IMG/VR virus record: IMGVR_UViG_2537561977_000019
Coordinates: 1 to 19,354 of that record
From: a virus
Taxonomy: Duplodnaviria; Heunggongvirae; Uroviricota; Caudoviricetes
Reading direction: 5' to 3' (one strand)
Length of the DNA stretch: 19,354 bases
Shown: one piece after another, positions 1 through 14,951 of the stretch
How the letters are laid out: the number at the start of each line of letters is the position of its first letter
How positions within the stretch are numbered: position 1 is the stretch's first letter
Translations under genes and position numbers: made by a program
The notes under the pieces: generated by a model
The model's input: only the letters and a program-made list of their open reading frames with translations
Databases searched by the model: none
Told to the model about the DNA's origin: nothing

Positions 1-216
1 TTATTCACCTCTCGCAGCCTTACGCTTATCTTCTCTTATTTTGAAATACAGATTCGTCAGATAAGTCAGAAGCCCCAGAAGCAGACTTCCCAGCACACCA
101 ATCGCAGCCCACTGTGATGGACTGACCTGATCCAACCACTGCAAAAACCAGTAGCCGGCACTGCCGGCGGAGGTGCCGTAGGCAATGCCTGTTGATATTT
201 TTTCCATCTGATACAT
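1..216 (-). CDS. Class II holin / pinholin, phage 21 S-like (71 aa, with internal start giving a 68-aa form)
   Basis: 71-aa ORF with a hydrophobic core ([19 protein letters not shown] ... [17 protein letters not shown]) and a charged C-terminus; begins M-Y-Q-M-E-K, i.e. two in-frame ATGs (216 and 207) as in holin/antiholin dual-start motifs; a G-rich SD (GGGGGG) lies upstream of 216. The family call is from memory of S21/EssD-like sequences. Confidence 0.8.
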
Positions 217-250
217 ATCCCGCCCCCCGACAGACCTGTGCTATCGGAAA

Positions 251-282
251 GAAAAAAGGCCATCAGCAAAACTCTGATGGCC
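251..282 (-). terminator. Intrinsic terminator on the minus strand, 36 nt upstream of the holin start
   Basis: Perfect 9-bp stem GGCCATCAG (258-266) / CTGATGGCC (274-282) with a 7-nt loop; on the minus strand the hairpin is followed by TTTTTT (complement of A252-A257). Confidence 0.6.
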
Positions 283-391
283 TGAATCACCTTTACCAAT
301 ATTGTATGAAAAAACACGCACGTCTAATTGACAATAATTTTCATTTCCATTAAAAAAGATCGCGTAGCATTCTTAATTCATGAGGAACTTT

Positions 392-457
392 ACCCGCCAG
401 CAATCTGAGTAGCGAAAGCTGTTCATCCCCAATGTTTTTGCTGGCGGGTCCTTTTTT
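392..457 (+). terminator. Long inverted repeat followed by T6 (terminator-like, plus strand)
   Basis: 12-bp perfect arms ACCCGCCAGCAA (392-403) / TTGCTGGCGGGT (438-449) enclosing a 34-nt loop, followed by CC and TTTTTT (452-457). Confidence 0.4.
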
Positions 458-895
458 CTACGGTCCTCCTCCCCGGAGGGGGCATTTCATTATTTTTCTA
501 ATCGTTACTGGTGAGAAGGCGGAAGAAAAAGCCAGTTCTTCGCCCCTAAATAACAGCATGATTCCAGTCCATGCAAAATCTGATTTCCAGCTCACACATA
601 CCGAGCGCTGTACAAAAAACCGCCAGCCAAGGCAGTTAAGAGTGTGTTCCCGGGGTTTGCTTAGAATATTTTGTAAGTTGTCCGAAGAGATATTTACAAC
701 ACCAGAATGATGAATCATCAGTCCCCTGCCAGAGGTTCACTACGTAACCTGACCGACAATGCACCATTCTGGTGCTGAAAAAAGAGCACTGGAACTGCAA
801 CAAAACAACATCACAGAACAGGAGATGGTAAGGAGTCAGACATTCCCACACAATATTGTGTCAGTGCAAATAACAACCTTCGTCTCAAATCTCGC

Positions 896-970
<75 letters not shown>

Positions 971-973
971 ATA

Positions 974-1049
<76 letters not shown>

Positions 1050-1051
1050 GC

Positions 1052-1128
1052 TGGCCCACCACCGAGGACTCGAACCTCGCACCGTCAACTTAGAAGGTTG
1101 ATGCTCTATCCGGATGAGCTAGTGGTGG
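1052..1128 (-). tRNA. tRNA-Arg (anticodon UCU)
   Basis: 77-nt cloverleaf: acceptor CCACCAC/GTGGTGG (unusual C1-G72), anticodon stem TCAAC/GTTGA with loop CTTCTAA, T-arm CGAGG-TTCGAGT-CCTCG, encoded CCA. Confidence 0.7.
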
Positions 1129-1129
1129 T

Positions 1130-1205
1130 TGGTGGCCCTTGCTGGACTTGAACCAGCGACCTGGCGATTATGAGTCGCTCGCTCTCACCACTGAGCTAAA
1201 GGGCC
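1130..1205 (-). tRNA. tRNA with CAU anticodon (Ile2/ileX-like, or elongator Met)
   Basis: Acceptor GGCCCTT/AAGGGCC, anticodon loop CTCATAA, T-arm GCTGG-TTCAAGT-CCAGC, encoded CCA. Close to my memory of E. coli ileX; Ile versus Met identity cannot be decided from sequence alone. Confidence 0.75.
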
Positions 1206-1245
1206 GATAACATAATGATAACGTTACAGAATAAATTCAGCAATA

Positions 1246-2304
1246 TCACTCTCTCTTTCTGATTGAATTCTGTACATCTCTTGCGGTCTGCTCAAAACGT
1301 TCAGCCTCCAGCTCGACACCAATTGCACGACGCCCCAGCGCCATCGCTGCTTTGACTGTCGAACCGGACCCCATGAAGAAATCTGCAACCAGGTCACCCG
1401 GACGACTGCTGGCGGTAATCATTTGCCGCAACATATCTGCCGGTTTTTCACAGGGATGTTTGCCCGGATAATACTGCACAGGCTTGTGCGTCCAGACATC
1501 CGTATAAGGAACGGCTGCCGATACGGAAAAATAACGCCGCAGGGATTTGTACTCTTCCAGCAGGCTGGCATACTGCCGGTTCAGCTCACTGTATGTGCTG
1601 ACCAGTTGGTGATGTGGCTTTTCCAGTTCACCCCGCTGATGTTTCTCTTCTGCCACCCGGGCAAACAGCACCTGAAGTTTTCTGTAATCATCCTCATTCG
1701 GCAACTGCCACTGACTGGCACCAAACCAGTGGGAAACCATATTTTTCTTACCTGTGGCTTCGGCAATTTGTTTTGCCGTTATACCCAGTTCGGCACGAGC
1801 ATCCCTGAAATACGATATCAGCGGTGCCATTATGTGCTGTTTGAGTTCCCTTTCTTTTGCCGCATAGCCGTCACTTTTGCCGCGATATGGCCCCTGGTAA
1901 TGTTCAGCAAACAGAACGCGCTCTGTGGCAGGAAAATATGCGCGCAGACTTTCTTTATTACACCCATTCCAACGTCCGGACGGCTTCGCCCAGATGATAT
2001 GGTTAAGCACGTTGAAACGTTCACGCATCATGATCTCAATATCAGATGCCAGGCGATGCCCACAGAACAGGTAAAGGCTTCCGGCAGGTTTCAACACCCG
2101 CCAGAACTGGGCCAGACAGTGGTCCAGCCACTTAAGGTAATCTTCGTCCCCTTTCCACTGATTGTCCCAACCGTTAGGTTTCACCTTGAAGTAAGGCGGA
2201 TCGGTAACAATCAGGTCAATGGAATCATCAGGCAGGGACTGAATAAAATGCAGGCAATCAGCGTTGATTAAATCAACACTGTTTATTTTTACAGTATTTT
2301 TCAT
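1246..2304 (-). CDS. DNA methyltransferase, beta-class (N6-adenine or N4-cytosine), 352 aa
   Basis: Catalytic motif DPPY near the N-terminus (LIVTDPPYF) and the SAM-binding motif FxGxG near the C-terminus (DFFMGSGSTVKAA). ATG at 2304; no strong SD. Confidence 0.8.
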   Translation of the reverse strand: MKNTVKINSVDLINADCLHFIQSLPDDSIDLIVTDPPYFKVKPNGWDNQWKGDEDYLKWLDHCLAQFWRVLKPAGSLYLFCGHRLASDIEIMMRERFNVLNHIIWAKPSGRWNGCNKESLRAYFPATERVLFAEHYQGPYRGKSDGYAAKERELKQHIMAPLISYFRDARAELGITAKQIAEATGKKNMVSHWFGASQWQLPNEDDYRKLQVLFARVAEEKHQRGELEKPHHQLVSTYSELNRQYASLLEEYKSLRRYFSVSAAVPYTDVWTHKPVQYYPGKHPCEKPADMLRQMITASSRPGDLVADFFMGSGSTVKAAMALGRRAIGVELEAERFEQTARDVQNSIRKRE

Positions 2305-2454
2305 GGATCAGTAAGCGTAACTCTGGTAGGCTCACTCTGCTTTTGCGCTAAAGCAGTGGGCCGTGGTTCGCTTGTGACCAGTAAGCATGAGCGAATGGCT
2401 GGCAGGTGCTACCAACACCCACCAGCCGCCCATTTTCACAGCAGGAAACCGCCA

Positions 2455-2682
2455 TTACTGGCAGCGTCTGAATTTATTCCCGTACCCGCCGTTATCCTTC
2501 GCCAGACCCGCCAAAACTAACTGAGTCAGTATTAACTGGCACCGGGCTTCGCTTACTCCGGTAGTTCTCGTCATCATGCGTGGCGTTACCCACTTGTCAG
2601 CAGGTAAGAAATGAAGGACTGCGGCGGCGGTTTCTGTCATATCTTGCTGTTTTAGCATGTCTTTTTCCCTTCTGGTTAACAT
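2455..2682 (-). CDS. Small hypothetical protein (67-75 aa)
   Basis: ORF just downstream of the tR'-like terminator. Alternative ATG at 2658 has an AAGGG SD about 9 nt upstream. No recognisable motif. Confidence 0.45.
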   Translation of the reverse strand: MLTRREKDMLKQQDMTETAAAVLHFLPADKWVTPRMMTRTTGVSEARCQLILTQLVLAGLAKDNGGYGNKFRRCQ

Positions 2683-2778
2683 GACATACCAATAACTCTT
2701 GTCTAAAAATCCAGCAAGATAAAAAGTCAGTATTCACGACCACCAGCGTGTTTACTGTACTGCACCAAGTTTACAGGT

Positions 2779-2803
2779 ACAAAAACCCGCTCAGTGGCGG
2801 GTT
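2779..2803 (-). terminator. tR'-like intrinsic terminator downstream of Q
   Basis: Stem CCCGC (2786-2790) / GCGGG (2797-2801) with loop TCAGTG; on the minus strand it is followed by TTTTTGT (complement of 2779-2785). Confidence 0.5.
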
Positions 2804-2849
2804 CTTAAATCTTATCAACGGTAGACATACAAAGCCCATCGTTGGGAAA

Positions 2850-2878
2850 ATCTTATCCATATTTTTTGAAAAATGCAA
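2850..2878 (-). promoter_or_regulatory. Candidate late promoter (pR'-like) just downstream of Q
   Basis: Minus strand reads TTGCAT (complement of 2873-2878), a 17-nt spacer, then TAAGAT (complement of 2850-2855). It sits about 50 nt upstream of the tR'-like hairpin. Confidence 0.35.
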
Positions 2879-2909
2879 GCATCATGTCGCCATCTTCGGC
2901 AAAAATCAT

Positions 2910-3662
2910 TTATCTTGTCACTTTTCTCAATTGTGTCTCTGCATATGCTTCTTCCTGCCAGCACTTTGTAACCAGTTTATCAATGACATCTGCATATCCT
3001 TTGTACCACTGATAATCCGTCAGATCCGGTACCAGCTTCTGGACATGATGCCGCGCCAGTGTGGTTGGTAAACGGCTAAACCGGTTTCCATTGCAACGCC
3101 CACAAATCTTATAAACAGGCGCACCATGAAGCCGGGTTCTTTTTTCATCCAGTACAATACCTTTCCCCTTACACCCTCTACACGCTGTGCTGACCTCTCC
3201 CTTACCATGACAATGCTGACATAGTTCCTTCACCCACTCTTCCTTGATAACAGATTCCCCGCTTCTGGAGTGTTTCACCACTTCGCGCAATACATTATGA
3301 AATCCAGTACCAGCACAATGCTCACAGCGAGCCTTACTTGCCGCAGACCTGGAATAATCAGCAAAGGCAAAATTCACAAGGTAAGGGATGATCTGTAACC
3401 GGGTTTCTTCACTCAATTTGTTCAATGTCGGGTTATCCAGTGCCATCGCGTAATTGAGCAGACCTTCAATCGCAAACTGAGGATCCTGAACACCAACTTT
3501 TGCCAGGAATAAGGCAAACCCAAGCGGTGCTTTCGACTGCACCATCCCCTGCGCAGCCATTACATCCGTAATTGTTAAACCACCAGAGCCTGTCGCCGGT
3601 GCGTCATCGCTCAATTTTGGAGATTTTGGGGAGTAATATTTCGGTAAGGCTTCAAGGTTCAT
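2910..3662 (-). CDS. Q-type late antiterminator (about 250 aa, Cys-rich)
   Basis: Several CxxC pairs (CEHCAGTG, CQHCHGKG, CRGCKGKG, CGRCNGN). It is the last gene before the pR'/tR'-like pair and the lysis genes. ATG at 3662 has a GGAG SD 7 nt upstream; the ORF track's upstream start at 3692 is TTG and overlaps the preceding gene. Confidence 0.7.
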   Translation of the reverse strand: MNLEALPKYYSPKSPKLSDDAPATGSGGLTITDVMAAQGMVQSKAPLGFALFLAKVGVQDPQFAIEGLLNYAMALDNPTLNKLSEETRLQIIPYLVNFAFADYSRSAASKARCEHCAGTGFHNVLREVVKHSRSGESVIKEEWVKELCQHCHGKGEVSTACRGCKGKGIVLDEKRTRLHGAPVYKICGRCNGNRFSRLPTTLARHHVQKLVPDLTDYQWYKGYADVIDKLVTKCWQEEAYAETQLRKVTR

Positions 3663-3675
3663 GCTCGTTCTCCAC

Positions 3676-4671
3676 TTACGCCAGCACGCCAATTGCCAGC
3701 GCGCGATCGATAAAACGAAATATCAGCTCCAGCTGGGAGCCATACTTCTCTTCAAATGCCACGGTATCCGCATGCAGCTCGTCGTGATGCTTTCTGCACA
3801 AAGGCAACACAAAGAGGTCATGCGCTTTTGTACCCATCCCGCCCTGACCGTGGCCTATCAGGTGGTGGGGATCATCAGCAGGCTTTCCACAACATGCACA
3901 CGGCTGCGTCTTAACCCAGCGCGTGTACTTTTCGTTAACCCAGCGGCGACGTTTTGGGCGTAACATAAAAGACTCCGGCGACTCCGGATCCACTTTCAGC
4001 GCCAGCACCTTTTTCGCTTTATCCTGGATGATGCTGGTGGCAGGAACCGAAGGCACAAGGTCACTTTCCCGGGTGACAGACGGCACAACAGGCTTCGGTA
4101 ATCTCAGTGCCTTACGGGCTGCACTTTCCGGTAAGGCATCCGCCAGGTCATTACGAACCAGCCACCAGCACAGTTCCGGCATTGTCACAACGTGACTATC
4201 ATCAAAACCGAGATCCCGACGCACGACAGACAACACCCAGCGGGCACAGTTATCCGTTGCCATTGATTCCAGCCGTTCCGTGAATTGATCGCGCAGCTGG
4301 TTATCGCAGTGCCAGCACAGACGGATTGCGCCCGGCGCGTGTCGCATTGTGGTCATGTTCTCGCTGTGCCAGTCGGAATGAGGCCACTGGCAGCCTTTTT
4401 CACGAAGTAACCAGCTTTCAAGACATTCCACCCCACCAGCACGACGGATCACTGCCTCATTGCGGAACACGGCCCGAACGGCAGGATCATCCGCCAGCGG
4501 TTGTGATGCCGCCGGAACGGCACCACTGGCGAAAGATGAATAACGTTCCGGCTCAGGCTCCAGCAGGACACGCCCCTGCATAAACAGGGGCATCAGCTCT
4601 GAACCTGGCCTGAACAATACGATCCCCATACGCGGGGCAATTTCAGGGGTCAGTAGTGCTCTCACGGTCAC
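3676..4671 (-). CDS. DUF968-family protein with an HNH-like C-terminal motif
   Basis: 331 aa; the C-terminus carries CACCGKPADDPHHLIGHGQGGMGTKAHDLFVLPLCRKHHDELH. GTG start at 4671 directly after the upstream stop. Typical nin-region gene. Confidence 0.7.
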   Translation of the reverse strand: MTVRALLTPEIAPRMGIVLFRPGSELMPLFMQGRVLLEPEPERYSSFASGAVPAASQPLADDPAVRAVFRNEAVIRRAGGVECLESWLLREKGCQWPHSDWHSENMTTMRHAPGAIRLCWHCDNQLRDQFTERLESMATDNCARWVLSVVRRDLGFDDSHVVTMPELCWWLVRNDLADALPESAARKALRLPKPVVPSVTRESDLVPSVPATSIIQDKAKKVLALKVDPESPESFMLRPKRRRWVNEKYTRWVKTQPCACCGKPADDPHHLIGHGQGGMGTKAHDLFVLPLCRKHHDELHADTVAFEEKYGSQLELIFRFIDRALAIGVLA

Positions 4672-4672
4672 C

Positions 4673-5482
4673 TCAATGAACGGTATCGAGCAGCTTTAAC
4701 AGCTCAGGGAATCGGGATTCGAAGAAATGCGGCTGCGTCTCGCGCGGATTTGCGGGACTGGTGATGTTCTTGCCAAACATGCAGCCTTTCGCTGTCAGCG
4801 ACCAGAATTTTTTGATGTTGTTAATCGCGGTACGGCTGTATCGTTCGCGCTGCTCGACGATCCCCAGCTTCACCATCTGGTGATATGCCTGATTAGCCGT
4901 CAGGCGGATACCATACTGCTTCAGCAGTGCACTCAGTGACAGCGTGGGGCGGCTTGAGCCATCAGGCGCGTCAGCAGGAGCATCAATGGCATAGCGCGGT
5001 GCCAGATTCGGTAAGCCAACAGCCTCCTGGAGTTTCTGACAGGCCCCAAGCACTGAAGAGTTAGACAGGTTTAACTCCCTGCGCATAAAGTCCAGCAGGA
5101 TCACGCCAGCCTGCATCTTGTCAGCAGCCTGTCCGGATAATTTTTCCGGTGCGCTGGTTACCATATCGAAAGTACGGATCACCTTCAGATGGAATGACGG
5201 GCTGATCCACATTGCATAGGCATACACCAGTTCCTTGCAGACATACGTTCCCCGTTCATTTCCCCCATGAATCACACTCACCGGGTCAACACCCAAATTC
5301 TGGGTGTTGGTCAATTCATGAACAAGCTCAACAGTTTGTTGGCTGGAAAGAAACTTTCCCGGCTCCTTGGTTCTGGCATTTGCACCAGATGCTACTGCTG
5401 CGCGATGCAGATCGTTCAGGCTGTAACGCCCATAAGCATCACGACGAACTTCAATACCATCAATGACCATCAGATTATTCAT
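4673..5482 (-). CDS. KilA-N domain protein
   Basis: N-terminus MNNLMVIDGIEVRRDAYGRYSLNDLHRAA is KilA-N-like. ATG at 5482 has an AGGAG SD 8 nt upstream; the longer ORF start at 5515 would overlap RusA. Confidence 0.7.
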   Translation of the reverse strand: MNNLMVIDGIEVRRDAYGRYSLNDLHRAAVASGANARTKEPGKFLSSQQTVELVHELTNTQNLGVDPVSVIHGGNERGTYVCKELVYAYAMWISPSFHLKVIRTFDMVTSAPEKLSGQAADKMQAGVILLDFMRRELNLSNSSVLGACQKLQEAVGLPNLAPRYAIDAPADAPDGSSRPTLSLSALLKQYGIRLTANQAYHQMVKLGIVEQRERYSRTAINNIKKFWSLTAKGCMFGKNITSPANPRETQPHFFESRFPELLKLLDTVH

Positions 5483-5501
5483 ACTTCGTTTCTCCTCTTG
5501 A

Positions 5502-5891
5502 TCAGGCGGCTGCACCCGCCGTTTTCTCGTACTTACTGATAGTGATCTCGACCTTCCCTTTCGGGATAACCGGTCCCCACTCCACCAGCATTCTTTTCAC
5601 CTGACTGTCGTCTTCCCACACACCCGCGTGGGTCAGGGCGTCAAACAGCGCCTTGTTATAGTTGTCCAGATCGCGGATCCGGTTATCCGGAGGAAACAAC
5701 ACGATCTCCACTGAAGCAGGTGCCGACGTTGGTTTCGGCAGACGACGTAACTGCTCAACTATTGCTGCGCACGCCGCGCTCTGGAATTTTCGCCCCGCCG
5801 AGCTTATCAGGCTCTTACCAGCAAACGCCCCTTTGTTGGAGTGTCGCCAGTACGTGTTCACGCTGGGCGGAAAAGGCAGGATCAGCTTCAT
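5502..5891 (-). CDS. rusA: RusA-family Holliday junction resolvase
   Basis: 129 aa with RusA hallmarks (LPFPPSVNTYWRH ... RDLDNYNKALFDALT ... DDSQV). ATGA overlap with the upstream gene. Confidence 0.85.
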   Translation of the reverse strand: MKLILPFPPSVNTYWRHSNKGAFAGKSLISSAGRKFQSAACAAIVEQLRRLPKPTSAPASVEIVLFPPDNRIRDLDNYNKALFDALTHAGVWEDDSQVKRMLVEWGPVIPKGKVEITISKYEKTAGAAA

Positions 5892-6214
5892 ACTTTCAGG
5901 TCCCTCTCATGTAACCAGTGGGTTGCACGCAGCCTTGCGTTTTCCTCACCGGCAAGCAGTGCGCGGATAATCCCGACCGCCTCGCTGTCGTCGTCCTTCA
6001 CCGCGGTATGAAGCGTTATCCCCCGGGCCACGCCACGCTTTATCGTGATGACGCCTTTTTTCTCCAGTGCGCGAAGATGCTCCACCGCTGCATTCACTGA
6101 ACGGTATCCCAGCATGGTTGCCACCTCCTGATTGGTTGGCGGGAAGCCACGTTCTTTCTGATAAGAAATCAGCATATCCAGCACCTGCTGCTGGCATTGA
6201 GTTAACGTCGTCAT
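5888..6214 (-). CDS. LexA-like winged-helix DNA-binding domain protein with no peptidase domain
   Basis: The first ~70 aa align with the LexA N-terminal domain (LTQCQQQVLDML ... PPTNQEVATMLGYRSVNAAVEHLRALEKKGVITI ... ARGITL). The 108-aa protein lacks the S24 Ser/Lys protease domain. ATGA overlap with the Dam gene. Confidence 0.7.
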   Translation of the reverse strand: MTTLTQCQQQVLDMLISYQKERGFPPTNQEVATMLGYRSVNAAVEHLRALEKKGVITIKRGVARGITLHTAVKDDDSEAVGIIRALLAGEENARLRATHWLHERDLKV

Positions 6215-6864
6215 GCCGCCATCTCCCTGACCAGTTTTTCCGCCTGCTGGCGAACCTGCGCCAGAAACGCCTCACCACATGCCTCAAGTTCATCGCGCCC
6301 GATGTAGCTGATTGCCGGTCCCTTCCAGGTCTTATCGAAAACAGCAATAGCACCAGCGAAGAAAGCGCCTGTCGGCACCTGCTTCTCATCCTTCGGGATA
6401 AACCAGGCAGGCAGTTCAAAACCAATACGCCCGCGAATAAAAGCAATATGGTCCGCATCTTCCGGCCACCACACTTCGCTGGTGGCAGCTTTGATCAGGA
6501 AAACATAGCGCCCACCCTTATCACGCATGGCACTGGCATGTTTCATGATGTAACGCATGCCGGTGATGTATTGCCCCTCATGCTGACTGGCGCGGCTGTA
6601 TGGGGGATTACCAAAGGCAGCCCCTTTAAGCTCCGCAAGACGTTCTGACCAGTCATGCGCCAGCGCGTTGTCTTCCGCCGTGTAATACGCAGCACATTTG
6701 GCGTTATCACCGTCAGTGAACAGATCCAGAACAAACGGGCCAAACAGGGTGTTAATTCCCCAGAAAATGTTGTCCGGCGTGCGCCACTGATCACCCACTT
6801 CCTTCAGTTCATGGGCTGGTTTGTTCCTCAGTTCCACCAGCTCCTGGCAATATTTATTACTCAT
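6211..6864 (-). CDS. Phage Dam-family N6-adenine DNA methyltransferase
   Basis: NPPY motif (AAFGNPPYS) in a ~217-aa protein. ATG at 6864 overlaps the upstream stop (TAATG); an alternative GTG lies at 6897. Confidence 0.8.
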   Translation of the reverse strand: MSNKYCQELVELRNKPAHELKEVGDQWRTPDNIFWGINTLFGPFVLDLFTDGDNAKCAAYYTAEDNALAHDWSERLAELKGAAFGNPPYSRASQHEGQYITGMRYIMKHASAMRDKGGRYVFLIKAATSEVWWPEDADHIAFIRGRIGFELPAWFIPKDEKQVPTGAFFAGAIAVFDKTWKGPAISYIGRDELEACGEAFLAQVRQQAEKLVREMAA

Positions 6865-7352
6865 TAAGCCCCCACGTAATTCCCTGACAGATACCACTCA
6901 TCACCCGATACAGCGCGCTTGCTGCTTTTCCGTAAACACTGCTCACGACGCGCCAGAAAATTGTTTCGTTCTGGCTGGGAGTGGCTTTCACGGAATGCCG
7001 CCATCCACACCGTTGCAGCACGACGGTATAAGCCCCTGGACTCCAGTTCTTCCGCCTGGCGGGTCAGGCACAAAATCACCCGGGGATCGTTAGTGCCGAC
7101 ATAGAAATTGCGCACAGGTCTGGTTTCACGAACTGGTTGTGGTTCCGGCTCCTGCGCTCTCTCAGTCAGGCGTGGGAAATGTCTGCGTGTATCTCCTTCA
7201 CAACGGTGAGCCACACGCCCACTCTGACGTAACTTGCTTGCTGACTGCAGAACGCGCTGCCGTGAGTAACCTGCAAAAGCATCCGCAATGTCTCCGGAAG
7301 TACACCCCGGATGGGCTTCAATGAATTTCTGAACGTCATTCAAAAGACTCAT
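6864..7352 (-). CDS. Hypothetical phage protein (about 162 aa)
   Basis: ORF starts 3 nt after the O-like stop (ATG 7352, AGGGG SD) and is coupled to the downstream Dam gene. Arg-rich; no confident family. Confidence 0.5.
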   Translation of the reverse strand: MSLLNDVQKFIEAHPGCTSGDIADAFAGYSRQRVLQSASKLRQSGRVAHRCEGDTRRHFPRLTERAQEPEPQPVRETRPVRNFYVGTNDPRVILCLTRQAEELESRGLYRRAATVWMAAFRESHSQPERNNFLARREQCLRKSSKRAVSGDEWYLSGNYVGA

Positions 7353-7354
7353 GA

Positions 7355-8173
7355 TCACCCCCTGAATCCTGCCGGGATCTGGCTGTAGTCCACGTTGTCG
7401 TAACTGGCTTTGAAGTACGGGTCCTCGCGTCTGGCTGCAGATACCGCAGGAACTTCCCAGGATTCTTCGAAATGACGATCCGGACCAAAGAACGTGACAG
7501 CCTGTTTCACAAATTGTGTGCCGCTGTTACCCATCGCAGATACCCAGCCCGCGTAGCGTTTCACACCTTCCAGCATGGTTTCGGGGTTTACCCCCTCATT
7601 CAAACGGGCTTTCCAGGCTTTGAAGGCTGCAGATTTTGAATTGCCACCAGCACGTTTGGGATAGGCCAGCCATGCCTGCTCAAACTCCGGAGAGTATTCC
7701 GGTCGGTTTGAACTAACTCGCACAGACTCATCAGCAGATGCACCAACAGCTATTGGTTCATTGACTGGTTCTTTGACTGGTTCAAAAGAGTGACTGGTTC
7801 TGGGTGAATCTCCTGCACTACCCCCTAGTGCAACTCCTGCACTACCTGGTGAATTTGCTGCACCAGATAGTGAATTATTTGCACTACCCCCTAGTGAATC
7901 TCCTGCACCATCCAGATGAAGGAGATAGATATTACTTGAGTTACCTTTTTCACCTTTCCGGGTGACTTTTTTTACCAGCCCGGACTCACAAAGGGCCGCA
8001 ATATGATTCATCACAGAACGTTTGCTAATCTCGCACTGGTCAGCAATATGCTGGTAGCTGGGCCAGCACTCACCCTGATCGCTGGCATTATCAGCCAGCT
8101 TGATCAGAACCAGTTTTCGCAATGGATTACCCACTCGAATTTTCATCGCTTTAACCATCAGCTCCATACTCAT
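7355..8173 (-). CDS. Replication initiator, O-like (N-terminal winged-helix, Gly/Ser/Ala-rich linker)
   Basis: N-terminus LRKLVLIKLADNASDQGECWPSYQHIADQCEISKRSVMNHIAALCESGLVKK resembles phage replication-initiator HTH domains. The linker is encoded by repetitive DNA, as iterons are in lambda O. ATG at 8173 in an ATGA overlap. Confidence 0.65.
   Translation of the reverse strand: MSMELMVKAMKIRVGNPLRKLVLIKLADNASDQGECWPSYQHIADQCEISKRSVMNHIAALCESGLVKKVTRKGEKGNSSNIYLLHLDGAGDSLGGSANNSLSGAANSPGSAGVALGGSAGDSPRTSHSFEPVKEPVNEPIAVGASADESVRVSSNRPEYSPEFEQAWLAYPKRAGGNSKSAAFKAWKARLNEGVNPETMLEGVKRYAGWVSAMGNSGTQFVKQAVTFFGPDRHFEESWEVPAVSAARREDPYFKASYDNVDYSQIPAGFRG
7761..7910. repeat. Iteron-like direct repeat cluster inside the O-like gene (candidate origin)
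   Basis: TGACTGGTTC occurs three times (7762-7771, 7774-7783, 7791-7800); GTGAATCTCCTGCAC twice (7804-7818, 7894-7908); TGCACTACCCCCTAGTG twice (7814-7830, 7880-7896); CTCCTGCACTACC also at 7835-7847. Confidence 0.5.
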
Positions 8174-8394
8174 GCTGCACCTCCGAGATGCTTCATGTTT
8201 TTTCCGGAGCGAAAGGCTATAAGCGGCATACTGACGCGGTAATTACGGCCCAGCGGTTCACAAATCACCTTCTGACATTCACGGTCAACCAGGCTAACAC
8301 GTAGAACATGCCCTGCAGGCGTGGTGTACCACTGACCCGGACGAGGACAACGGAAAGTCTGATTGGTAAAACGTTTGAAAATATTCCGGATCAT
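8170..8394 (-). CDS. Small hypothetical protein (74 aa), possibly DUF4222-like
   Basis: ATGA overlaps at both ends (8391-8394 and 8170-8173) place it in the coupled early-right operon. The family guess is from a weak motif memory only. Confidence 0.45.
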   Translation of the reverse strand: MIRNIFKRFTNQTFRCPRPGQWYTTPAGHVLRVSLVDRECQKVICEPLGRNYRVSMPLIAFRSGKNMKHLGGAA

Positions 8395-9554
8395 TTACGC
8401 CCCCTTACCTCTGAAGGGTTCAGCGACAAATTTATGAGACTGGCCAGTAGCGCCGCGTCGTTGATGCGGTCATACAGACTTACAGCCAGCGGGGATTCGG
8501 CTTTTGCCAACATGGGATAAAGCTGCTGCAGCCAGACCTGATGAATTGATGAAATGTAGGAATAGAGAACGCTGGCGTTATGTGCAACGTCGCTCAGTAC
8601 AGAGGGATTTGAAAGCTGTTTCTCCATCTGGTTAAAGGCATTGATGTATGCCTCTTTGAACCGGGCAGCACGTTTACCCGTGAAACCCATAGCAAGAAAC
8701 GCAAAGCCGTCGCGGGTTATTTGATAGCAAGGAAGTTTGCGAGTACCGCCGTTGGGCTGGCGTACCAAAATTGATGTCTCCGCAAAATTGCGGGCACAAA
8801 ACTCTGGAGAACAATCCAAAATGCGGATCTTTTTCAGAACATCGTCATGACGTTTAGAGAAGAAGTCAGCAACAGCCAAAGAAGATGTAACAGCCTGACC
8901 ATCAACGATGGCAATTTCAGGTTGAGAGAGGGTTGGGAGAGTAGTCATGGTGACAGCCCCGGTAGTCAGTTTTTTAGAAAACTCACCACATGGGACGCCA
9001 ATCACAGAGGTGGTGAGACGTACAGGGTTGGCGTTACCGGAGACTACCGAACCCGGCCCGACCGAAGTCGGCCCTGTACGCCCCACCATAATTTGGGCGT
9101 AGCAATGCTCATGACACGAAAAAACCGCATGAGCGCGGTTATGCTCAGTAATCAATTTCAGGACGCCAATCCCGGCACCCGTTTTATAAGGTGCCTGAAC
9201 AGTGTAACGTCCCGGAATGGCAGAATCAATGTGCTGGTGGTCCTTCACACTCAACAAAATCACGCCTGAATTTCCACAAAGGACTAAAGCACTCATGCGG
9301 GTAGTCTTTGCGAAGATAGATAACGCGCTGTGTTTCTGGCTCCCAACGAATAACATGAACATAAAGTCCTCTTCCGTCACGAAACCAGCGGTTAAGTTCC
9401 TGCACAACTCGCCCCCCACAGTCAGGTAAAGTTCTCTGTGGTTACTTACAGCCAGGTGATTTGGTAATCTGCATTCATGCCGTAACAACAGGTGTGCAGC
9501 GACACTGACCACCAGCTGTTGCGACAAACGGTTATTTGCCGTTAAACTGTTCAT
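8391..9554 (-). CDS. Rha-family regulatory-domain protein with a ~200-aa N-terminal extension of unknown function
   Basis: Residues ~205-330 match the Rha pattern (AVADFFSKRHDDVLKKIRIL ... RDGFAFLAMGFTGKRAARFKEAYINAFNQME). ATG at 9554 overlaps the upstream stop (ATGA) with a GGAG SD; the frame stays open for 387 codons. An internal ATG at 8948 would give an Rha-only protein. Confidence 0.6.
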   Translation of the reverse strand: MNSLTANNRLSQQLVVSVAAHLLLRHECRLPNHLAVSNHRELYLTVGGELCRNLTAGFVTEEDFMFMLFVGSQKHSALSIFAKTTRMSALVLCGNSGVILLSVKDHQHIDSAIPGRYTVQAPYKTGAGIGVLKLITEHNRAHAVFSCHEHCYAQIMVGRTGPTSVGPGSVVSGNANPVRLTTSVIGVPCGEFSKKLTTGAVTMTTLPTLSQPEIAIVDGQAVTSSLAVADFFSKRHDDVLKKIRILDCSPEFCARNFAETSILVRQPNGGTRKLPCYQITRDGFAFLAMGFTGKRAARFKEAYINAFNQMEKQLSNPSVLSDVAHNASVLYSYISSIHQVWLQQLYPMLAKAESPLAVSLYDRINDAALLASLINLSLNPSEVRGRK

Positions 9555-10135
9555 GCGTTAGTTTCTCCACAACCAGAAGCAATCGACGCCACGACGCCCG
9601 GAGCTGCACACTCGCGGGCGTTACTCTTTTCCGGCGCACAAAAAACACGAAATAACAGTGTTAAATGCTCCTGCCACTTCGCCATTACTTGGTAGCTGTT
9701 CTCTTCGATTTGCTCACGCTCAGCTTGGTCAATAACTCCATCAGCAGTTGCCTTGCGTAAGTACTGGGAATGCTTGCCAATCCATTCTATTGACTCCATC
9801 AGCCGCTGATTAATGTCACCATTGTCAATGTCATCAATGACCACCAGCGGCACAAACACCCCATTACTACGACGGGCTATTGCATCTGTTACATGCCTGG
9901 TACCACTGGCATCCTGTAAAACCATGGCCCACTCAAGTGGAAAAATTTGATCCCCACCGCTACGCAGTCTGTTATGCAATTGATCTTTTGCTGGGGTGAT
10001 ATCATCAGATTTATACAAACCAAGAATTTCTGCTGCTTCCTCATAGCCATGAGGTAAATCAGCAATCGTTCTTCGTATTGCTGCCACCAGCCATGCTGGT
10101 TGTTTATCAACTTTCCATTCAGGTTCTTTACCCAC
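9551..10135 (-). CDS. Regulator in the cII position (possibly YdaT-like), about 195 aa
   Basis: GTG at 10135 has a GAGGA SD 7 nt upstream and lies 28 nt after the cro stop. The ORF track's upstream ATGs (10246, 10213) have no SD and would overlap cro. Function is inferred from position only. Confidence 0.45.
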   Translation of the reverse strand: MGKEPEWKVDKQPAWLVAAIRRTIADLPHGYEEAAEILGLYKSDDITPAKDQLHNRLRSGGDQIFPLEWAMVLQDASGTRHVTDAIARRSNGVFVPLVVIDDIDNGDINQRLMESIEWIGKHSQYLRKATADGVIDQAEREQIEENSYQVMAKWQEHLTLLFRVFCAPEKSNARECAAPGVVASIASGCGETNA

Positions 10136-10163
10136 GGTTAATTCCTCATTTCTGTGGTTACGT

Positions 10164-10427
10164 TTACGCAGCTGAACCGCTAACTTTTGAATAGCACTCA
10201 GGTAATCCATCATTTGGATTGGGGTAAATATCAGGACGCAGTTCATGAGGGGTCACGGACCAGTTTCCCAACTCACAAAGTTGTAAAACCCGTTCTGACG
10301 GGACTTGATTGTTAATTACCCAATTAGCGACGGATTGAGTGGACTTAAAACCAAAGCGACGGGCTACTTCAGATAAAGATTTTCCCGCAGCTTTTACTGC
10401 TTTCTCTGTGTAGTTTTGAGATGACAT
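10164..10427 (-). CDS. Cro-like HTH regulator (YdaS-like)
   Basis: 87 aa with an HTH segment (LSEVARRFGFKSTQSVANWV), divergent from the CI-like gene; GAGGAG SD before the ATG at 10427. Confidence 0.75.
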   Translation of the reverse strand: MSSQNYTEKAVKAAGKSLSEVARRFGFKSTQSVANWVINNQVPSERVLQLCELGNWSVTPHELRPDIYPNPNDGLPECYSKVSGSAA

Positions 10428-10533
10428 ACCTTTCTCCTCTGAAATTCAGAGGGATAATGCTACTTAAAATAGCAAAATGCAACTACTTAAAATAGAAATG
10501 ACTAGCGTATGTGATGTGAGTAATCTTCTACCT
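10428..10533. promoter_or_regulatory. Immunity-region operator/promoter interval (OR with divergent pR and pRM)
   Basis: 106-bp interval between divergent cro-like and cI-like starts. Contains two exact 13-bp direct repeats CTACTTAAAATAG (10460-10472, 10483-10495). Minus strand carries TTGCAT-17-CATTAT as a pR-like element. Confidence 0.5.
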
Positions 10534-11238
10534 ATGGTAGAAGAACAGAAGTATCCAGATTTCGCCAAGAGACTAAACGAGCTAATGACAAACAAGGGAA
10601 TTTCTGTCACCCAACTCAAAAGTCTTGTGGGCGTTACATATGAAATGGCGCGGCGATACACAATCGGCGCTGCGAAGCCTCGTGCCTCTGTCATGAATAA
10701 ACTTGCATTGGCTCTGGGGGTATCAGCTTCATATTTAGAATATGGTGTTGGCGAGAGAGAAGGATGTAAGGAAATGACAAGCATCCCCAATCCAACAAAA
10801 CCCGATGTATACAGGATAGAAGTTTTGGATCTTAGCGTTAGCGCAGGACCTGGGACCTATATGCTTTCAGACTATGTTGATGTGCTCTACGCCATTGAGT
10901 TCACAACAGAACATGCCCGTTCTCTTTTCGGCAACCGTTCTCAGGATGATATTAAGGTTATGACTGTAAATGGCGATAGTATGTCCCCTACTCTCGTTTC
11001 CGGAGACCGACTGTTTGTCGACATTTCTGTTCGTCACTTCCAGACTGATGGAGTTTACTCTTTCGTTTACGGTAAGACTTTTCATGTCAAACGTCTTCAA
11101 ATGCAAGGTGACAAGCTAGCCGTTCTTTCGGATAACCCCGCCTATGAGAAATGGTATATCGATGAAAAATCGCAGGATCAGCTTTATGTAATGGGCAAGG
11201 CGTTGATTCACGAATCTATAAAATACAACCGATTGTAA
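10534..11238 (+). CDS. CI-like prophage repressor (HTH plus S24 LexA-like peptidase domain)
   Basis: N-terminal HTH (FAKRLNELMTNKGISVTQLKSLVG) and C-terminal S24 motifs (VNGDSMSPTL ... GDRLFVD ... KRL). Start is uncertain: in-frame ATGs at 10477, 10498 and 10534, none with an SD, consistent with a leaderless pRM transcript. Confidence 0.8.
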   Translation: MVEEQKYPDFAKRLNELMTNKGISVTQLKSLVGVTYEMARRYTIGAAKPRASVMNKLALALGVSASYLEYGVGEREGCKEMTSIPNPTKPDVYRIEVLDLSVSAGPGTYMLSDYVDVLYAIEFTTEHARSLFGNRSQDDIKVMTVNGDSMSPTLVSGDRLFVDISVRHFQTDGVYSFVYGKTFHVKRLQMQGDKLAVLSDNPAYEKWYIDEKSQDQLYVMGKALIHESIKYNRL

Positions 11239-11282
11239 AACTCAATCCTTTCAGGATTAAAAGATCTAAAAGGATAATAATA

Positions 11283-11690
11283 ATGAAATCTGAACTATTT
11301 CATAACGAAGCAAATTCAGAAATTATCACCGCAGATGAGTTTATTGATTTCATAAACTCTTTCAAAAAGCCTTTAATTTGCCAAATTTGCGGAAATCAAT
11401 CATGGAGTGTAGTCGGTACTCTAGAACTTGAAGTTGAAGACAATCAGCCAAAACATCACGTAATCGAAGTTCTCAGCTATGCCCAATACAAACCTGAAAC
11501 TGATAGCGCTATAAATTATCCTGGTGGTATGCCGCTGTTTCGAATCACCTGTGATCACTGTGCACATGTACTTCTTTTTTCTTATAAAAAAGCTAGATCA
11601 TTGATCCAAAAAAGAAAAATGAAAAAGAAGAGGATGGGAAATGACGCGACCTTATCTCAGAGCAGTACCAAACTGTGGATCTGGTATTGA
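11283..11690 (+). CDS. Hypothetical Zn-ribbon protein (135 aa) in an AT-rich cassette co-oriented with cI
   Basis: ATG at 11283 with an AAGGA SD, 45 nt after the cI stop. Two CxxC pairs (CQICGN and CDHC) and a basic C-terminus. AT-rich composition by eye. Confidence 0.55.
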   Translation: MKSELFHNEANSEIITADEFIDFINSFKKPLICQICGNQSWSVVGTLELEVEDNQPKHHVIEVLSYAQYKPETDSAINYPGGMPLFRITCDHCAHVLLFSYKKARSLIQKRKMKKKRMGNDATLSQSSTKLWIWY

Positions 11691-12273
11691 TAAGTGTGAC
11701 CTTTACCCCAATGTTAAGAACAGGCTGCGCGTCGGTATAGAAGAAATGTATACTGATTTTATCGAATCCGCAGATGAAACTTACAAAACTGATGGGGGAA
11801 ATAAAATGTCATCAGTTAGTCGAGAAGAAATTCAAGCACTTTTAGCTGCCAATAAAGCAGAAATGGAGTCCATTGCATCCTCTATTAGAGTTGAAATGGC
11901 TTTATCTCGCGAGAACACAAACGTTCAGCTAGCATCTCTAAATTCAGCCATCAATTCTATCTCTTCGAAAATCGAAGGCAAAATGGACAGTGTTGACGGG
12001 GATGTGAAGGCCATCAATGGTAGATTCGAAGGTATACAAGGCCAAATTACTGGAATAAATACAGCCATTAGTGGTATTCAATCTGGAATTTCTACCAGAC
12101 TTGCTATTTTTGGAGTTATCATTGCGGTCATAGTTGCATTACCTAGCATAATTTCTGCTTTTAAAGATACTTCGCCAGTAGTTCAACCAGTTACACAACA
12201 ACCAAGTGTTAAACATCTCAACCAAGAACCAATTACTCCACAAGTATTACCTCCGCAGGGAAAAGCAAACTAA
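11641..12273 (+). CDS. Hypothetical coiled-coil protein with a single C-terminal transmembrane helix
   Basis: Two candidate starts, each with a good SD: 11641 (GAGGA, overlaps the previous ORF by 50 nt) and 11806 (GGGGGA). Heptad-like Ser/Ile/Gly repeats, then LAIFGVIIAVIVALPSIISAF and a Pro/Gln-rich tail. Confidence 0.55.
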   Translation: MTRPYLRAVPNCGSGIDKCDLYPNVKNRLRVGIEEMYTDFIESADETYKTDGGNKMSSVSREEIQALLAANKAEMESIASSIRVEMALSRENTNVQLASLNSAINSISSKIEGKMDSVDGDVKAINGRFEGIQGQITGINTAISGIQSGISTRLAIFGVIIAVIVALPSIISAFKDTSPVVQPVTQQPSVKHLNQEPITPQVLPPQGKAN

Positions 12274-12297
12274 ACCGGCTTTATGCCGGTTTTTTTC
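12274..12297 (+). terminator. Intrinsic terminator ending the cI-linked cassette
   Basis: Stem ACCGGC (12274-12279) / GCCGGT (12285-12290), loop TTTAT, followed by TTTTTTC. Confidence 0.75.
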
Positions 12298-12399
12298 TAT
12301 ACAAACGCCCCCTCTTTGTCTTGAATCACATCACAACACATTTAAAAAACATTTTAAATTCAAAGCATTAAACGCATCAACGCATATCAAACAAATTAT

Positions 12400-12448
12400 C
12401 TACTTTTAGTTGTTGATTTTTGCTACTTTTGGTAGCAGAATTATTTTA
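12400..12448 (+). promoter_or_regulatory. Candidate pL/OL: plus-strand promoter overlapping operator-like sites
   Basis: TTGCTA (12420-12425), 16-nt spacer, TATTTT (12442-12447). Overlaps CTACTTTTGGTAG (12423-12435) and sits next to CTACTTTTAG (12400-12409), both sharing the CTACTT...TAG ends of the OR repeats. Confidence 0.4.
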
Positions 12449-12520
12449 ACGACAACGAACAGGCAGGACGCCCACGAAGTAGCCGCCTGGGGCATATGAA
12501 GTCCAGGATGATTCGTTAGC

Positions 12521-12547
12521 AACAAAAAAGCGCCCTACAGGACGCTT
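12521..12547 (-). terminator. Intrinsic terminator for the convergent minus-strand gene
   Basis: Stem AAGCG / CGCTT with a 10-nt loop, followed on the minus strand by TTTTTTGT. Confidence 0.45.
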
Positions 12548-12585
12548 AGCTCTTTAACAATCTGGATATCCACAACAGTAGTAAT

Positions 12586-13077
12586 CTACAGATTGCCGTT
12601 AAGTTTTCTGGACAACTCCTCAATGGATGGAGGCGATACGTAATCCGGATTTTTATTCATCAGAAACTTATTTTCACAGTGGAGGCACCTGCTTTTATGA
12701 AAAAGCTCATCTTCGCTAACCGGGAATGGTTGAAGTATCGATACTATCTTTTGTCCAAAACATTTTGGGCAAAGATGCATGGTTATGCTGCCACCGTTCA
12801 CGATTACCTCCTTCGAGTATACAAAAGTACCCGACTCAAGTTGGTTAAGGATATAGCCTTCCGTCTGAGCCTCAAAGTTTTCGAATTCTGCAATTTTAGC
12901 TTTGAGAGAAGCATTTATTTCTTGATAAGAGCCCACCAGTTCAACGAGAGACACGCATTCGCGCTGAATAGACGCAAGCTTTGAGTTCAGCTCACCAATA
13001 GCCGCATTTACTTCAGCTTGAGTTTTTGCCTCGTTCATTAGTTTTGCAATCTGGGCTGTTTCACGAATAGCCGTCAT
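12586..13077 (-). CDS. Hypothetical coiled-coil protein with a C-terminal Zn-ribbon (about 163 aa)
   Basis: AT-rich ORF convergent on the cI cassette. Likely start ATG 13077 or GTG 13101 (AAGAG SD); the longer ORF-track N-terminus is Arg/Pro-rich and judged non-coding. C-terminus HLCPKCFGQ ... CLHCENKF. Confidence 0.5.
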   Translation of the reverse strand: MTAIRETAQIAKLMNEAKTQAEVNAAIGELNSKLASIQRECVSLVELVGSYQEINASLKAKIAEFENFEAQTEGYILNQLESGTFVYSKEVIVNGGSITMHLCPKCFGQKIVSILQPFPVSEDELFHKSRCLHCENKFLMNKNPDYVSPPSIEELSRKLNGNL

Positions 13078-13115
13078 TGCTGCCGTTAATTCAGCGATCA
13101 CATTGAATACTCTTA

Positions 13116-13169
13116 TTGTTGTTGGGGATATCCAGATTAACCGAATCCTTGTTGTTGGGGAATAACCAG
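13116..13169. repeat. Tandem direct repeat TTGTTGTTGGGGA-TA-CCAG (two copies)
   Basis: 13116-13135 TTGTTGTTGGGGATATCCAG and 13149-13169 TTGTTGTTGGGGAATAACCAG, just upstream of the minus-strand gene start. Confidence 0.4.
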
Positions 13170-13388
13170 GTCCACCTCGCCTGATGTGGCTAAAAGCAGG
13201 CACATAACAGCTAAGTATTTTCAACCAGAGAGAATCCTTAGCGTTGTGGTGAATGCGGCTCAGCGCACGCGGGTTAAGGTTGAGGCTGACAGTCGACCTT
13301 CTGTGGATACCCACCCGTCTGGTGTGCAACCTTCGCCAGGCACCGGGAGGCACCCGGCACCACAACTTTATGCTGTGTGTAGTCCTGG

Positions 13389-13433
13389 CGGTACCAGTTT
13401 GTACCCTTGCTTCCGGCTGGTACCGTCCTTTTT
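13389..13433 (+). terminator. Terminator-like hairpin with T-tract in the early-left leader
   Basis: 9-bp arms CGGTACCAG (13389-13397) / CTGGTACCG (13417-13425), then TCCTTTTT. About 140 nt upstream of the first early-left gene. Confidence 0.4.
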
Positions 13434-13570
13434 ACAAAACAGAGAAGAGCATCACCGGACGACGGGCTCATAACCCAATCCATCCGGGCGGCTGCCACCG
13501 CAGGTGTTCTTCTCTGTTTTGTGGAGAAACCAACCGGCCTTGCAGGGTCGATATGATGAGGAGCAGCAAA

Positions 13571-13933
13571 ATGGCTAGCGAACGCAGTACTGATGTGCAG
13601 GCATTTATCGGGGAGTTGGACGGCGGCGTATTTGAAACCAAAATCGGCGCAGTTCTCAGTGAAGTCGCTTCAGGTGTGATGAACACGAAAACCAAAGGTA
13701 AGGTCTCACTCAACCTGGAAATCGAACCATTTGATGAGAACCGTGTGAAAATCAAACACAAACTCTCATATGTTCGCCCGACTAACCGCGGGAAAATTTC
13801 CGAAGAAGACACCACCGAAACGCCGATGTATGTCAATCGCGGTGGTCGCCTGACTATTCTGCAGGAAGACCAGGGACAATTACTGACTCTTGCCGGTGAA
13901 CCTGACGGAAAACTCCGCGCAGCAGGTCATTAA
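13571..13933 (+). CDS. Hypothetical early-left protein, YfdP-like (about 120 aa)
   Basis: ATG 13571 with a GAGGAG SD; the longer ORF-track N-terminus is GC-rich leader. Family name is a tentative match based on size and gene order. Confidence 0.5.
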   Translation: MASERSTDVQAFIGELDGGVFETKIGAVLSEVASGVMNTKTKGKVSLNLEIEPFDENRVKIKHKLSYVRPTNRGKISEEDTTETPMYVNRGGRLTILQEDQGQLLTLAGEPDGKLRAAGH

Positions 13934-13998
13934 TATCGTTCTTAATTAACCGATTATTTATCTCATCACTGAATATCTTTATATAGTGAGGACTTATT

Positions 13999-14823
13999 AT
14001 GTCTCAGAACTTAGACGCAACCGCAATTAATCAAATCCATGCCCTTATTTCTGCTCAGGGTGTTAATGAAATTATCAGTAAGATTGGTGCCGATGCTGTG
14101 GCATTACCTGAAAATTTCCGCATTCATGATCTGGAAAAATTTAATTTAAATCGCTTCCGTTTCCGTGGTGCGCTTTCCACTGCCAGCATCGATGACTTTA
14201 CCCGTTATTCTAAAGATCTTGCAGATGAAGGCACCCGCTGCTTTATCGATGCCGATAATATGCGTGCCGTCAGTGTGCTTAACCTGGGTACTATTGATGA
14301 ACCAGGTCACGCAGATAACACTGCCACTCTCAAACTGAAAAAGACAGCACCGTTCTCTGCTCTGTTGTCTGTTAACGGCGAGCGTAACTCCCAGAAGTCA
14401 CTGGCAGAATGGATTGAAGACTGGGCCGACTACCTTGTGGGCTTTGATGCTAATGGTGACGCCATTCAGGCAACCAAAGCGGCTGCGGCGATCCGTAAAA
14501 TCACAATTGAAGCGAACCAGACCGCTGATTTTGAAGATAATGACTTCAGCGGCAAACGCTCCCTGATGGAGTCTGTCGAAGCGAAGACCAAAGACATTAT
14601 GCCTGTGGCATTTGAATTTAAATGCGTTCCGTTTGAAGGTCTGAAAGAACGTCCGTTTAAATTACGCCTCAGCATTATCACTGGCGATCGTCCTGTACTG
14701 GTTCTGCGCATTATTCAGCTGGAAGCGATGCAGGAAGAAATGGCTAACGAATTTCGTGATCTGCTTGTTGAGAAATTCAAAGACAGCAAAGTAGAAACCT
14801 TTATTGGTACTTTCACCGCCTGA
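13999..14823 (+). CDS. YfdQ-like (DUF2303) protein, 274 aa
   Basis: ATG 13999 with a GAGGA SD. Size and neighbours (HD-domain gene next) resemble the yfdPQRS prophage block; family recalled, not computed. Confidence 0.6.
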
Positions 14824-14951
14824 TTTCATTACTGCAAATGCCCCTGCGGGGGCATTTATGGAAACGTAATTAACTCAATAATCACCGGATGGTGAGAGCT
14901 TCCTTTTAGCAGAATTCAGCGCGGTGCAGCGCATATAAAGTGGAGAACGAA

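Follow-up and report, generated by a model that had tools for sequence, protein, structure and literature searches.

An apparently protein-free, RNA-dense spacer before the holin of a lambdoid prophage, with a putative insulating terminator, a candidate antisense small RNA and a covariation-supported trailer RNA

Small RNAs (sRNAs) that are convergent with or antisense to late transcription are established in the moron site of lambdoid prophages, 3' of pR' (PMC4104026). Stx phages carry stx in this slot, downstream of the antiterminator gene Q, and prophage anti-sRNAs combine a variable 5' end with a conserved 3' hairpin (PMC4104026). In enteropathogenic Escherichia coli (EPEC) E2348/69, PasA and PasC of prophages PP2 and PP5 have been shown experimentally and are Hfq-dependent (PMC8550237; bioRxiv 10.64898/2026.05.13.724894). 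Here we describe the corresponding interval of a lambdoid prophage contained in IMG/VR record IMGVR_UViG_2537561977_000019, of which positions 1 to 19,354 (19,354 nucleotides, hereafter the window) were analyzed; its late region is the minus strand. The interval is the 679-bp non-coding gap at 217-895, between a class II holin gene and a tRNA cluster. On balance, we favor reading it from its sequence as a protein-free, RNA-dense spacer of the late operon, in which two mobile modules would bring together a tRNA trailer, an insulating terminator, and an antisense sRNA gene. This layout is ordinary and already documented in related E. coli prophages, in the form of moron-site sRNAs and terminators read through by Q; what appears new here is one unnamed, widespread sRNA candidate and one unnamed structured RNA supported by covariation. 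The features of the interval are as follows.

217-596: segment A, a non-coding module linked to the class II holin, with which it travels.
247-283, minus strand: intrinsic terminator, with stem 283-274/266-257, a 7-nt loop, and U-tract 256-247.
328-356, plus strand: promoter-like site, consisting of TTGACA (328-333), a 17-nt spacer, and TAAAAA (351-356).
363-457, plus strand: candidate sRNA of ~95 nt, antisense to the late leader, predicted from fold and conservation.
597-895, minus strand: segment B, the phage tRNA cluster's conserved 3' trailer.
612-637, minus strand: weaker terminator-like hairpin (637-618) followed by U6 (617-612) at the end of segment B.
693-781, minus strand: element B2, a nearly continuous, G.U-rich hairpin of ~34 bp (28 + 6 pairs).
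786-867, minus strand: element B1, in which a closing helix (867-862/791-786) encloses two hairpins, 861-848 and 821-795.

The plus-strand unit formed by the promoter-like site and the candidate sRNA resembles PasA and PasC in its setting and architecture. All occupy the final non-coding gap ahead of a class II holin, are antisense to the late operon, begin with a consensus TTGACA, and end with a hairpin containing GCCAGC/GCTGGC and a U-run, and in each case a separate late-direction terminator stands 35-55 nt before the holin. The window hairpin differs in being longer and branched, and the window unit is a prediction from sequence. We rejected the unit as a PasA/PasC homologue, because neither MAFFT nor local alignments rose above shuffled sequences. 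AsxR and AgvB of enterohemorrhagic E. coli (EHEC) likewise occupy the moron slot between Q and the lysis genes, lie antisense to the late or stx transcript, and, like the window unit, are variable at the 5' end and conserved in the 3' hairpin; at 51-60 nt they are shorter than the ~95 nt predicted here (PMC4104026). The EHEC sRNA pairs are convergent, whereas the window unit stands back-to-back with the late-direction terminator.

None of the known RNAs of this neighborhood was recovered from the interval. AgvB (RF02702), AsxR (RF02703), Esr41, and STnc100 gave no match within 200-900 at E values up to 10 and none anywhere in the window at the gathering score. Rfam searches of window positions 1-4500 (E up to 1), of 200-900 (E up to 10), and of 15 sources at the gathering score returned only tRNAs here; the sub-threshold matches in the interval were driven by the terminator or by hairpins. 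The candidate sRNA is also not among Rfam-based sRNA lists, including that of an outer membrane vesicle sRNA paper restricted to Rfam families, and a literature search with sequence strings of the element found no relevant paper. PapR was considered as the identity of the unit because a remnant of segment A on chromosomes of the sequence type 131 (ST131) kind lies ~2 kb from papI, and was rejected when its primer sequences showed a different RNA. The ipeX/nmpC region of the K-12 prophage DLP12 was rejected as a counterpart, being non-homologous upstream of the holin. In a separate locus whose class II holin has an unrelated upstream region (L060), an antisense-oriented 10-bp hairpin followed by T7 lies ~340 bp before the holin (1279-1302, plus strand) and is a further candidate antisense sRNA terminator in that slot.

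The original prediction placed a strong minus-strand terminator just upstream of the holin, a claim borne out by its fold and conservation and backed further by its decay upon holin loss and its recurrence in unrelated holin upstream regions. The stem is a perfect 10 bp (257-266/274-283) with six G-C pairs, followed by UUUUUUCUUU (256-247), so that 283-247 has the G+C-rich stem, short loop, and immediate U-tract of a rho-independent terminator. Its U6 stops 34 nt before the holin ATG (216), and none of 200 shuffled sequences folds as well (z = -4.6). The core hairpin (-17.3 kcal/mol, with U6) is identical in window-type prophages and in "type-2" prophages that are 88% identical to the window. 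In two remnants lacking the holin, it carries mismatches, its U-run is interrupted, and its fold has dropped to -10.5 and -8.9 kcal/mol; this decay ties the terminator to the holin. A late-direction terminator also stands 35-125 nt upstream of the class II holin in three non-homologous upstream regions, those of O177:H21 (L060), E2348/69 PP2 (L062), and K-12 essD (L007). Recurrence without homology, together with decay once the holin is gone, argues that the terminator works as an insulator of the lysis cassette, and these observations fit an element that would halt ordinary polymerase and be read through by Q-modified polymerase.

On the opposite strand, the combination TTGACA-N17-TAAAAA occurs once in the window against 0.01 expected, and TTGACA itself is depleted, with 4 copies found against 13.9 +/- 3.7 expected. 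The other three copies, at 9823, 11085, and 13831, are all on the minus strand. Across the four lineages of segment A that we retrieved by BLAST, which underlie the conservation statistic for this module, the -35 hexamer and the spacing are invariant. The candidate sRNA would comprise a variable 5' third (363-391), a perfect 12-bp stem (392-403/438-449), and U6 (452-457); enclosed by the stem are an inner hairpin of 8 bp, capped by a GAAA loop, and 12 nt of single strand. With ACUUU directly 5' of the stem, the unit has the U/A-rich single strand, hairpin, and 3' U-tail of an sRNA-type terminator. The 12-bp stem and T6 at 392-457 are as originally described, and the hairpin folds at -28.8 kcal/mol (z = -5.0). 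Variable columns make up 9% of the hairpin and T-run (392-457), the best-conserved stretch of segment A, compared with 31% of the rest of the module (Fisher p = 1.7e-4). The promoter box ranks next at 17%, and the predicted 5' third (357-391) varies most within the unit, at 40%. The hairpin loop (UCCCCAAUGUUU) is invariant. Two features are specific to the plus strand, namely the U-run 3' of the hairpin and the inner 8-bp hairpin, which requires two G.U pairs formed on that strand only. The unit is also kept in the holin-less remnants, at -21.5 to -28.8 kcal/mol and with U6 intact, which points to a role in trans. A nearby plus-strand hairpin (465-482) was rejected, being unconserved and unremarkable in its fold (z = -0.5). 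Whether the plus-strand unit encodes a real sRNA is, in our judgment from these sequence features, an even call.

Segment B appears to encode a second RNA, which the original prediction had missed: a structured RNA on the late strand that is supported by covariation. We aligned 12 diverse relatives in the late direction with MAFFT and derived the structure with RNAalifold and pair counts. The consensus for B1 and B2 comprises 54 pairs, in which 94.4% of cells are paired, a share that drops to 31-55% once the partners are shifted by 1-3 columns. Fifteen of the 54 pairs have changed on both sides, and none of 500 shuffles reached the observed values, although the structure comes from this very alignment and relatedness among sequences can by itself outdo shuffles in the absence of structure. 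Compensatory changes fall in helices 1, 3, and 5. The alignment contains 118 G.U cells, and the same pairs are 94.4% paired on the late strand and 78.5% paired on the opposite strand, which argues that the RNA acts on the late strand. B2 folds at -40.4 kcal/mol (z = -6.3), and in its 28-pair helix 97.6% of cells are paired; the duplex exceeds the ~20 bp expected of RNase III sites, and we propose that B2 may serve as an RNase III-type processing or stability element. B1 is directly followed by a U-run (785-778). At the far end of the segment, a CCGCC...GGCGG site with U8, homologous to 637-612, is present in 5 of the 11 other aligned relatives. The hairpin at 637-612, and possibly the site at ~785, would be further late-direction terminator-like sites that the earlier description did not include.

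We propose that segment B is a processed 3' trailer of the phage tRNA operon. 3'ETS-leuZ is an sRNA derived from a tRNA 3' external transcribed spacer, and the T7 R sites and lambda sib are phage processing hairpins for RNase III. Segment B is like the former in being a conserved structured RNA placed directly 3' of an operon's final tRNA, and B2 is like the latter in being a long, near-perfect duplex of the kind that RNase III cuts; it has no sequence relationship to any of them. 3'ETS-leuZ is itself listed as an sRNA in published interaction data (PMC8550237 supplement).

The interval is, as judged from its homologies, a mosaic of the two modules, a point that had gone unnoticed. Segment A is found upstream of class II holins, at 84-88% identity, in ~1,430 of 5,426 complete E. 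coli genomes. IncF/ColV plasmids (575 PLSDB records) carry a remnant of it (248-596) next to an Rz fragment and iss, and the remnant also occurs on ST131-type chromosomes. Near-identical copies of segment B are found in only nine complete E. coli genomes, and its relatives, at 66-79% identity, lie downstream of tRNA-Gly or tRNA-Glu in many prophages, including SerU-LTIIb and the prophage found in DH5alpha, which we take to be phi80. Of 127 evaluable IMG/VR loci with the B2 motif, 115 have it 126-143 nt downstream of a tRNA-Gly on the same strand; among the remainder are chance matches to unrelated DNA that seems to be coding. The block 1-1222, comprising the holin, the interval, and the tRNAs, moves as one unit at ~99% identity in IMG/VR prophages, with two copies each in one Shigella flexneri genome and one E. 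coli reference genome. A megablast search of the phage GenBank collection gave no match, and a distant search of it matched only the holin start and segment B.

In the type-2 prophages, STnc100, in the late direction, fills the slot that the window's tRNAs and segment B occupy. We observed STnc100 (RF02076, 114-124 bits) in this direction in L002 (5511-5699, minus strand) and L063 (1670-1859, plus strand), between a methyltransferase or DUF3927 gene and the holin-proximal module. STnc100 and PasD offer a parallel of late-direction sRNAs in this position, with STnc100 between the methyltransferase and segment A (L002 5699-5511); the window differs in lacking STnc100, to which segment B is unrelated by Rfam. 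In many related loci (L015, L018, L021, L024, L025, L028, L032, L034, L044, L064, and L066), homology to the window stops precisely at 223-226, a point that separates the terminator from the holin start. L021 and L028 have the holin part ~1.45 kb away, with 223-226 present on both sides, which looks like a recurrent insertion of insertion sequence size with a 4-bp duplication that would uncouple the holin from its leader. At the distal end of segment A (543-596), we observed long invariant runs (543-561 and 577-596) and small late-strand hairpins (574-556 and ~551-531); no conserved promoter was found in 543-596. A minus-strand promoter candidate within segment A, TTCTCA-17-AATAAT (517-489), was rejected because it falls in a variable, indel-rich stretch.

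The original prediction held that the interval has no credible open reading frame (ORF) and corresponds to the position at which Stx phages carry stx. Both statements stand. The ORFs of 53-92 aa in the interval (the longest being 92, 86, 71, and 61 aa) match no Pfam or PHROG family, their frames are not conserved, and no RefSeq coding sequence is annotated in the interval in 9 near-identical genomes. A single "hypothetical protein" called in the 88%-identical relatives by the Prokaryotic Genome Annotation Pipeline (PGAP) lies in a frame that is riddled with stop codons in the window. The slot is the moron site downstream of Q (PMC4104026).

The surrounding late region contains the following features.

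1-216, minus strand: 71-aa class II (phage 21 S-type) holin whose frame contains two starts, M1 and M4 (ORF list; Pfam PF04971, E = 1.5e-35).
896-1205, minus strand: tRNA cluster of four rare-codon tRNAs, CAU, Arg-UCU, Thr-UGU, and Gly-UCC (ARAGORN, RefSeq).
1215-1243, minus strand: candidate sigma-70 promoter for the tRNA cluster, TTGCTG (1243-1238), N17, TATCAT (1220-1215), assigned from sequence and absent from the promoter-scan calls.
1246-2304, minus strand: DNA methyltransferase.
2781-2801, minus strand: tR'-like terminator directly 3' of Q, with stem 2801-2786 and U5 2785-2781.
2850-2878, minus strand: candidate pR' directly 3' of Q, TTGCAT (2878-2873), N17, TAAGAT (2855-2850), assigned from sequence.
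2910-3692, minus strand: Q antiterminator (PF03589).

A 75-aa ORF is placed between Q and the methyltransferase gene. The promoter-like site and the hairpin after Q are candidates for the usual pR'-tR' arrangement, and the folded tR'-like site (2845-2772) has z = -4.5. The terminator scan overlooked this hairpin, which is clear on folding, likely because its A-rich 5' flank lets the stem extend into the U-run. As in lambda-type Q antitermination, Q is followed by a promoter-like site and a short-transcript terminator, and further terminators stand between the tR'-like site and the lysis genes; nothing in this is new in principle. With a candidate pR' and tR' directly after Q, Q-dependent read-through of the terminators downstream would be the expected logic.

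Other observations concern the tRNAs and a distant part of the window. The CAU tRNA (1130-1205, minus strand) is assigned to Met by ARAGORN, and the identical gene is a tRNA-Ile in RefSeq; it is probably a lysidine-modified reader of AUA, as in the ileZ-type tRNAs of Stx phages. C4 antisense RNA (9006-9093, minus strand; 82 bits) and isrK (9118-9194, minus strand; 60 bits) are matched at the Rfam gathering score. This pair, which is also present in locus L054, suggests a P1/P7-type c4-controlled antirepressor immunity module inside the lambdoid prophage.

Several results weigh against the interpretation that we favor. The second hexamer of the plus-strand promoter-like site, TAAAAA (TAAAAG in one lineage), lacks the near-invariant final T of a -10 element, and because it ends in A, a sigma-70 consensus scan leaves the promoter uncalled. 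The original prediction was right about the hexamers and the 17-nt spacer, but the promoter is weaker than it implied. The antisense sRNA it proposed is plausible; the conserved hairpin and the PasA/PasC-like architecture speak for it, and the defective -10 and the invariant stems count against it. The hairpin stems are invariant in all variants (15 distinct sequences from the four lineages) and give no covariation signal; the only two stem changes seen, in L004 and L050, have opposite implications for the strand. The conservation statistic covers four lineages, of which the two remnants may share an ancestor. No plus-strand element was found outside E. coli and Shigella in a scan of species representatives, the unit has no Rfam match, it shows no significant sequence similarity to PasA/PasC (local alignment z = 1.3-2.6 against shuffles), and shuffled sequences are predicted to pair with the translation-initiation region of the holin just as well as the candidate sRNA does. 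In segment B, the B1 fold has little thermodynamic strength when the window sequence is taken by itself (z = -1.3), and the 637-612 hairpin of the window folds no better than shuffles (z = -0.6). The promoters assigned to the tRNA cluster and to pR' are both consensus-poor.

Given these weaknesses, the plus-strand hairpin and T-run could be a terminator only, either the relic of a lost moron or a block on antisense transcription towards Q, with TTGACA not a working promoter and no discrete sRNA produced. The defective, uncalled -10 suits this explanation, as does the presence of antisense-oriented morons (nmpC, iraM, and lpxR) in the slot in other prophages. There is, however, no plus-strand gene upstream of the hairpin for it to terminate, the loop sequence is invariant and not the stem alone, the unit is more conserved than its flanks, the -35 and spacing are constant in the four lineages, and TTGACA is otherwise avoided in the window. 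We regard a terminator alone as somewhat unlikely. It is quite unlikely that the 392-449 hairpin acts instead within the late transcript of the minus strand, where it would serve the holin leader in processing, stability, or pausing. Its outer 12-bp stem folds about equally well on the minus strand (-27.4 kcal/mol compared with -28.8), and the change in the plasmid-lineage variant L004 (G to A at the 9th stem position) is tolerated as G.U on the minus strand only; yet the change in variant L050 is tolerated on the plus strand only, the U-run and the inner 8-bp hairpin belong to the plus strand, and the element is retained in remnants that have no holin.

A different question is whether the 283-247 terminator mainly forms the 3' end of a late-direction sRNA derived from tRNA-operon or late transcripts, a back-to-back partner of the plus-strand unit for which insulation of the holin would be secondary. 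All four lineages share the same 14 nt immediately on the hairpin's 5' side (GUAAAGGUGAUUCA, 296-283), STnc100 lies in the neighboring slot of the relatives L002 and L063, PasD2 does so when the coordinates from RIL-seq (in which interacting RNAs are ligated and sequenced) are mapped on E2348/69 (PMC8550237), and the sub-threshold Rfam matches here are all to terminator-ended sRNAs. We nonetheless hold such an sRNA to be unlikely: within 150 nt there is no acceptable promoter on the minus strand, relatives do not conserve the best -10 (TACAAT, 306-301), and the terminator decays upon holin loss. That the interval conceals a small protein-coding gene is very improbable. PGAP does annotate hypothetical proteins, one of 63 aa in some relatives at the counterpart of 240-431 and one of 86 aa in strain 503025 across part of segment B, but these frames are interrupted by stop codons in the window, the indels among homologues are not multiples of three, Pfam and PHROG give no matches, and the calls are inconsistent among genomes equally similar to the window (87.8%). 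Our preferred interpretation is the protein-free spacer with a trailer RNA, an insulating terminator, and an antisense sRNA gene.

We can outline how such a spacer might work, in a scheme whose inferred parts are termination itself, read-through by Q, transcription of the sRNA, its dependence on Hfq, and cleavage by RNase III. In a lysogen, transcripts from pR' would stop at tR'. Those from the tRNA or methyltransferase promoters would be processed within segment B, with B1 and B2 processed or stabilized as RNA, and non-antiterminated transcripts of the tRNA operon would stop in part at ~785 and at 637-612. Remaining transcription of this kind would end at 283-247, ~34 nt before the holin start codon, and because these terminators would stop non-antiterminated transcription, the holin and lysis genes would stay silent in the lysogen. 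Upon induction, Q-modified polymerase from pR' (~2850-2880) would read through all of these sites and would be the sole source of lysis transcription. Independently of late transcription, the plus-strand unit probably yields a small RNA analogous to PasA/PasC and AsxR/AgvB. As the candidate sRNA is fully complementary to the late leader, it could also have effects in cis, through convergent transcription or RNase III.

A bolder, joint proposal can be put forward only tentatively. The candidate sRNA may be an undescribed trans-acting family present in about a quarter of complete E. coli genomes, co-mobilized with iss on ColV/IncF virulence plasmids and domesticated by the host after loss of the lysis genes, while segment B may represent an undescribed structured-RNA family fused to phage tRNA-Gly, as a regulator of the 3'ETS type or a processing module.

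The accepted picture of late-gene control in lambdoid phages is unchanged by these findings. The recurring terminator before class II holins would keep the lysis genes silent while upstream tRNA or moron genes are expressed, and the structured RNA linked to the tRNAs makes a clean candidate, backed by covariation, for a new RNA family. Should the antisense RNA prove real, it would be a widespread, unnamed addition to the moron-site sRNAs, such as AsxR/AgvB and PasA-D, that rewire host regulation, and one also carried beside the serum-survival gene iss on the ColV plasmids of extraintestinal and avian pathogenic E. coli (ExPEC/APEC).

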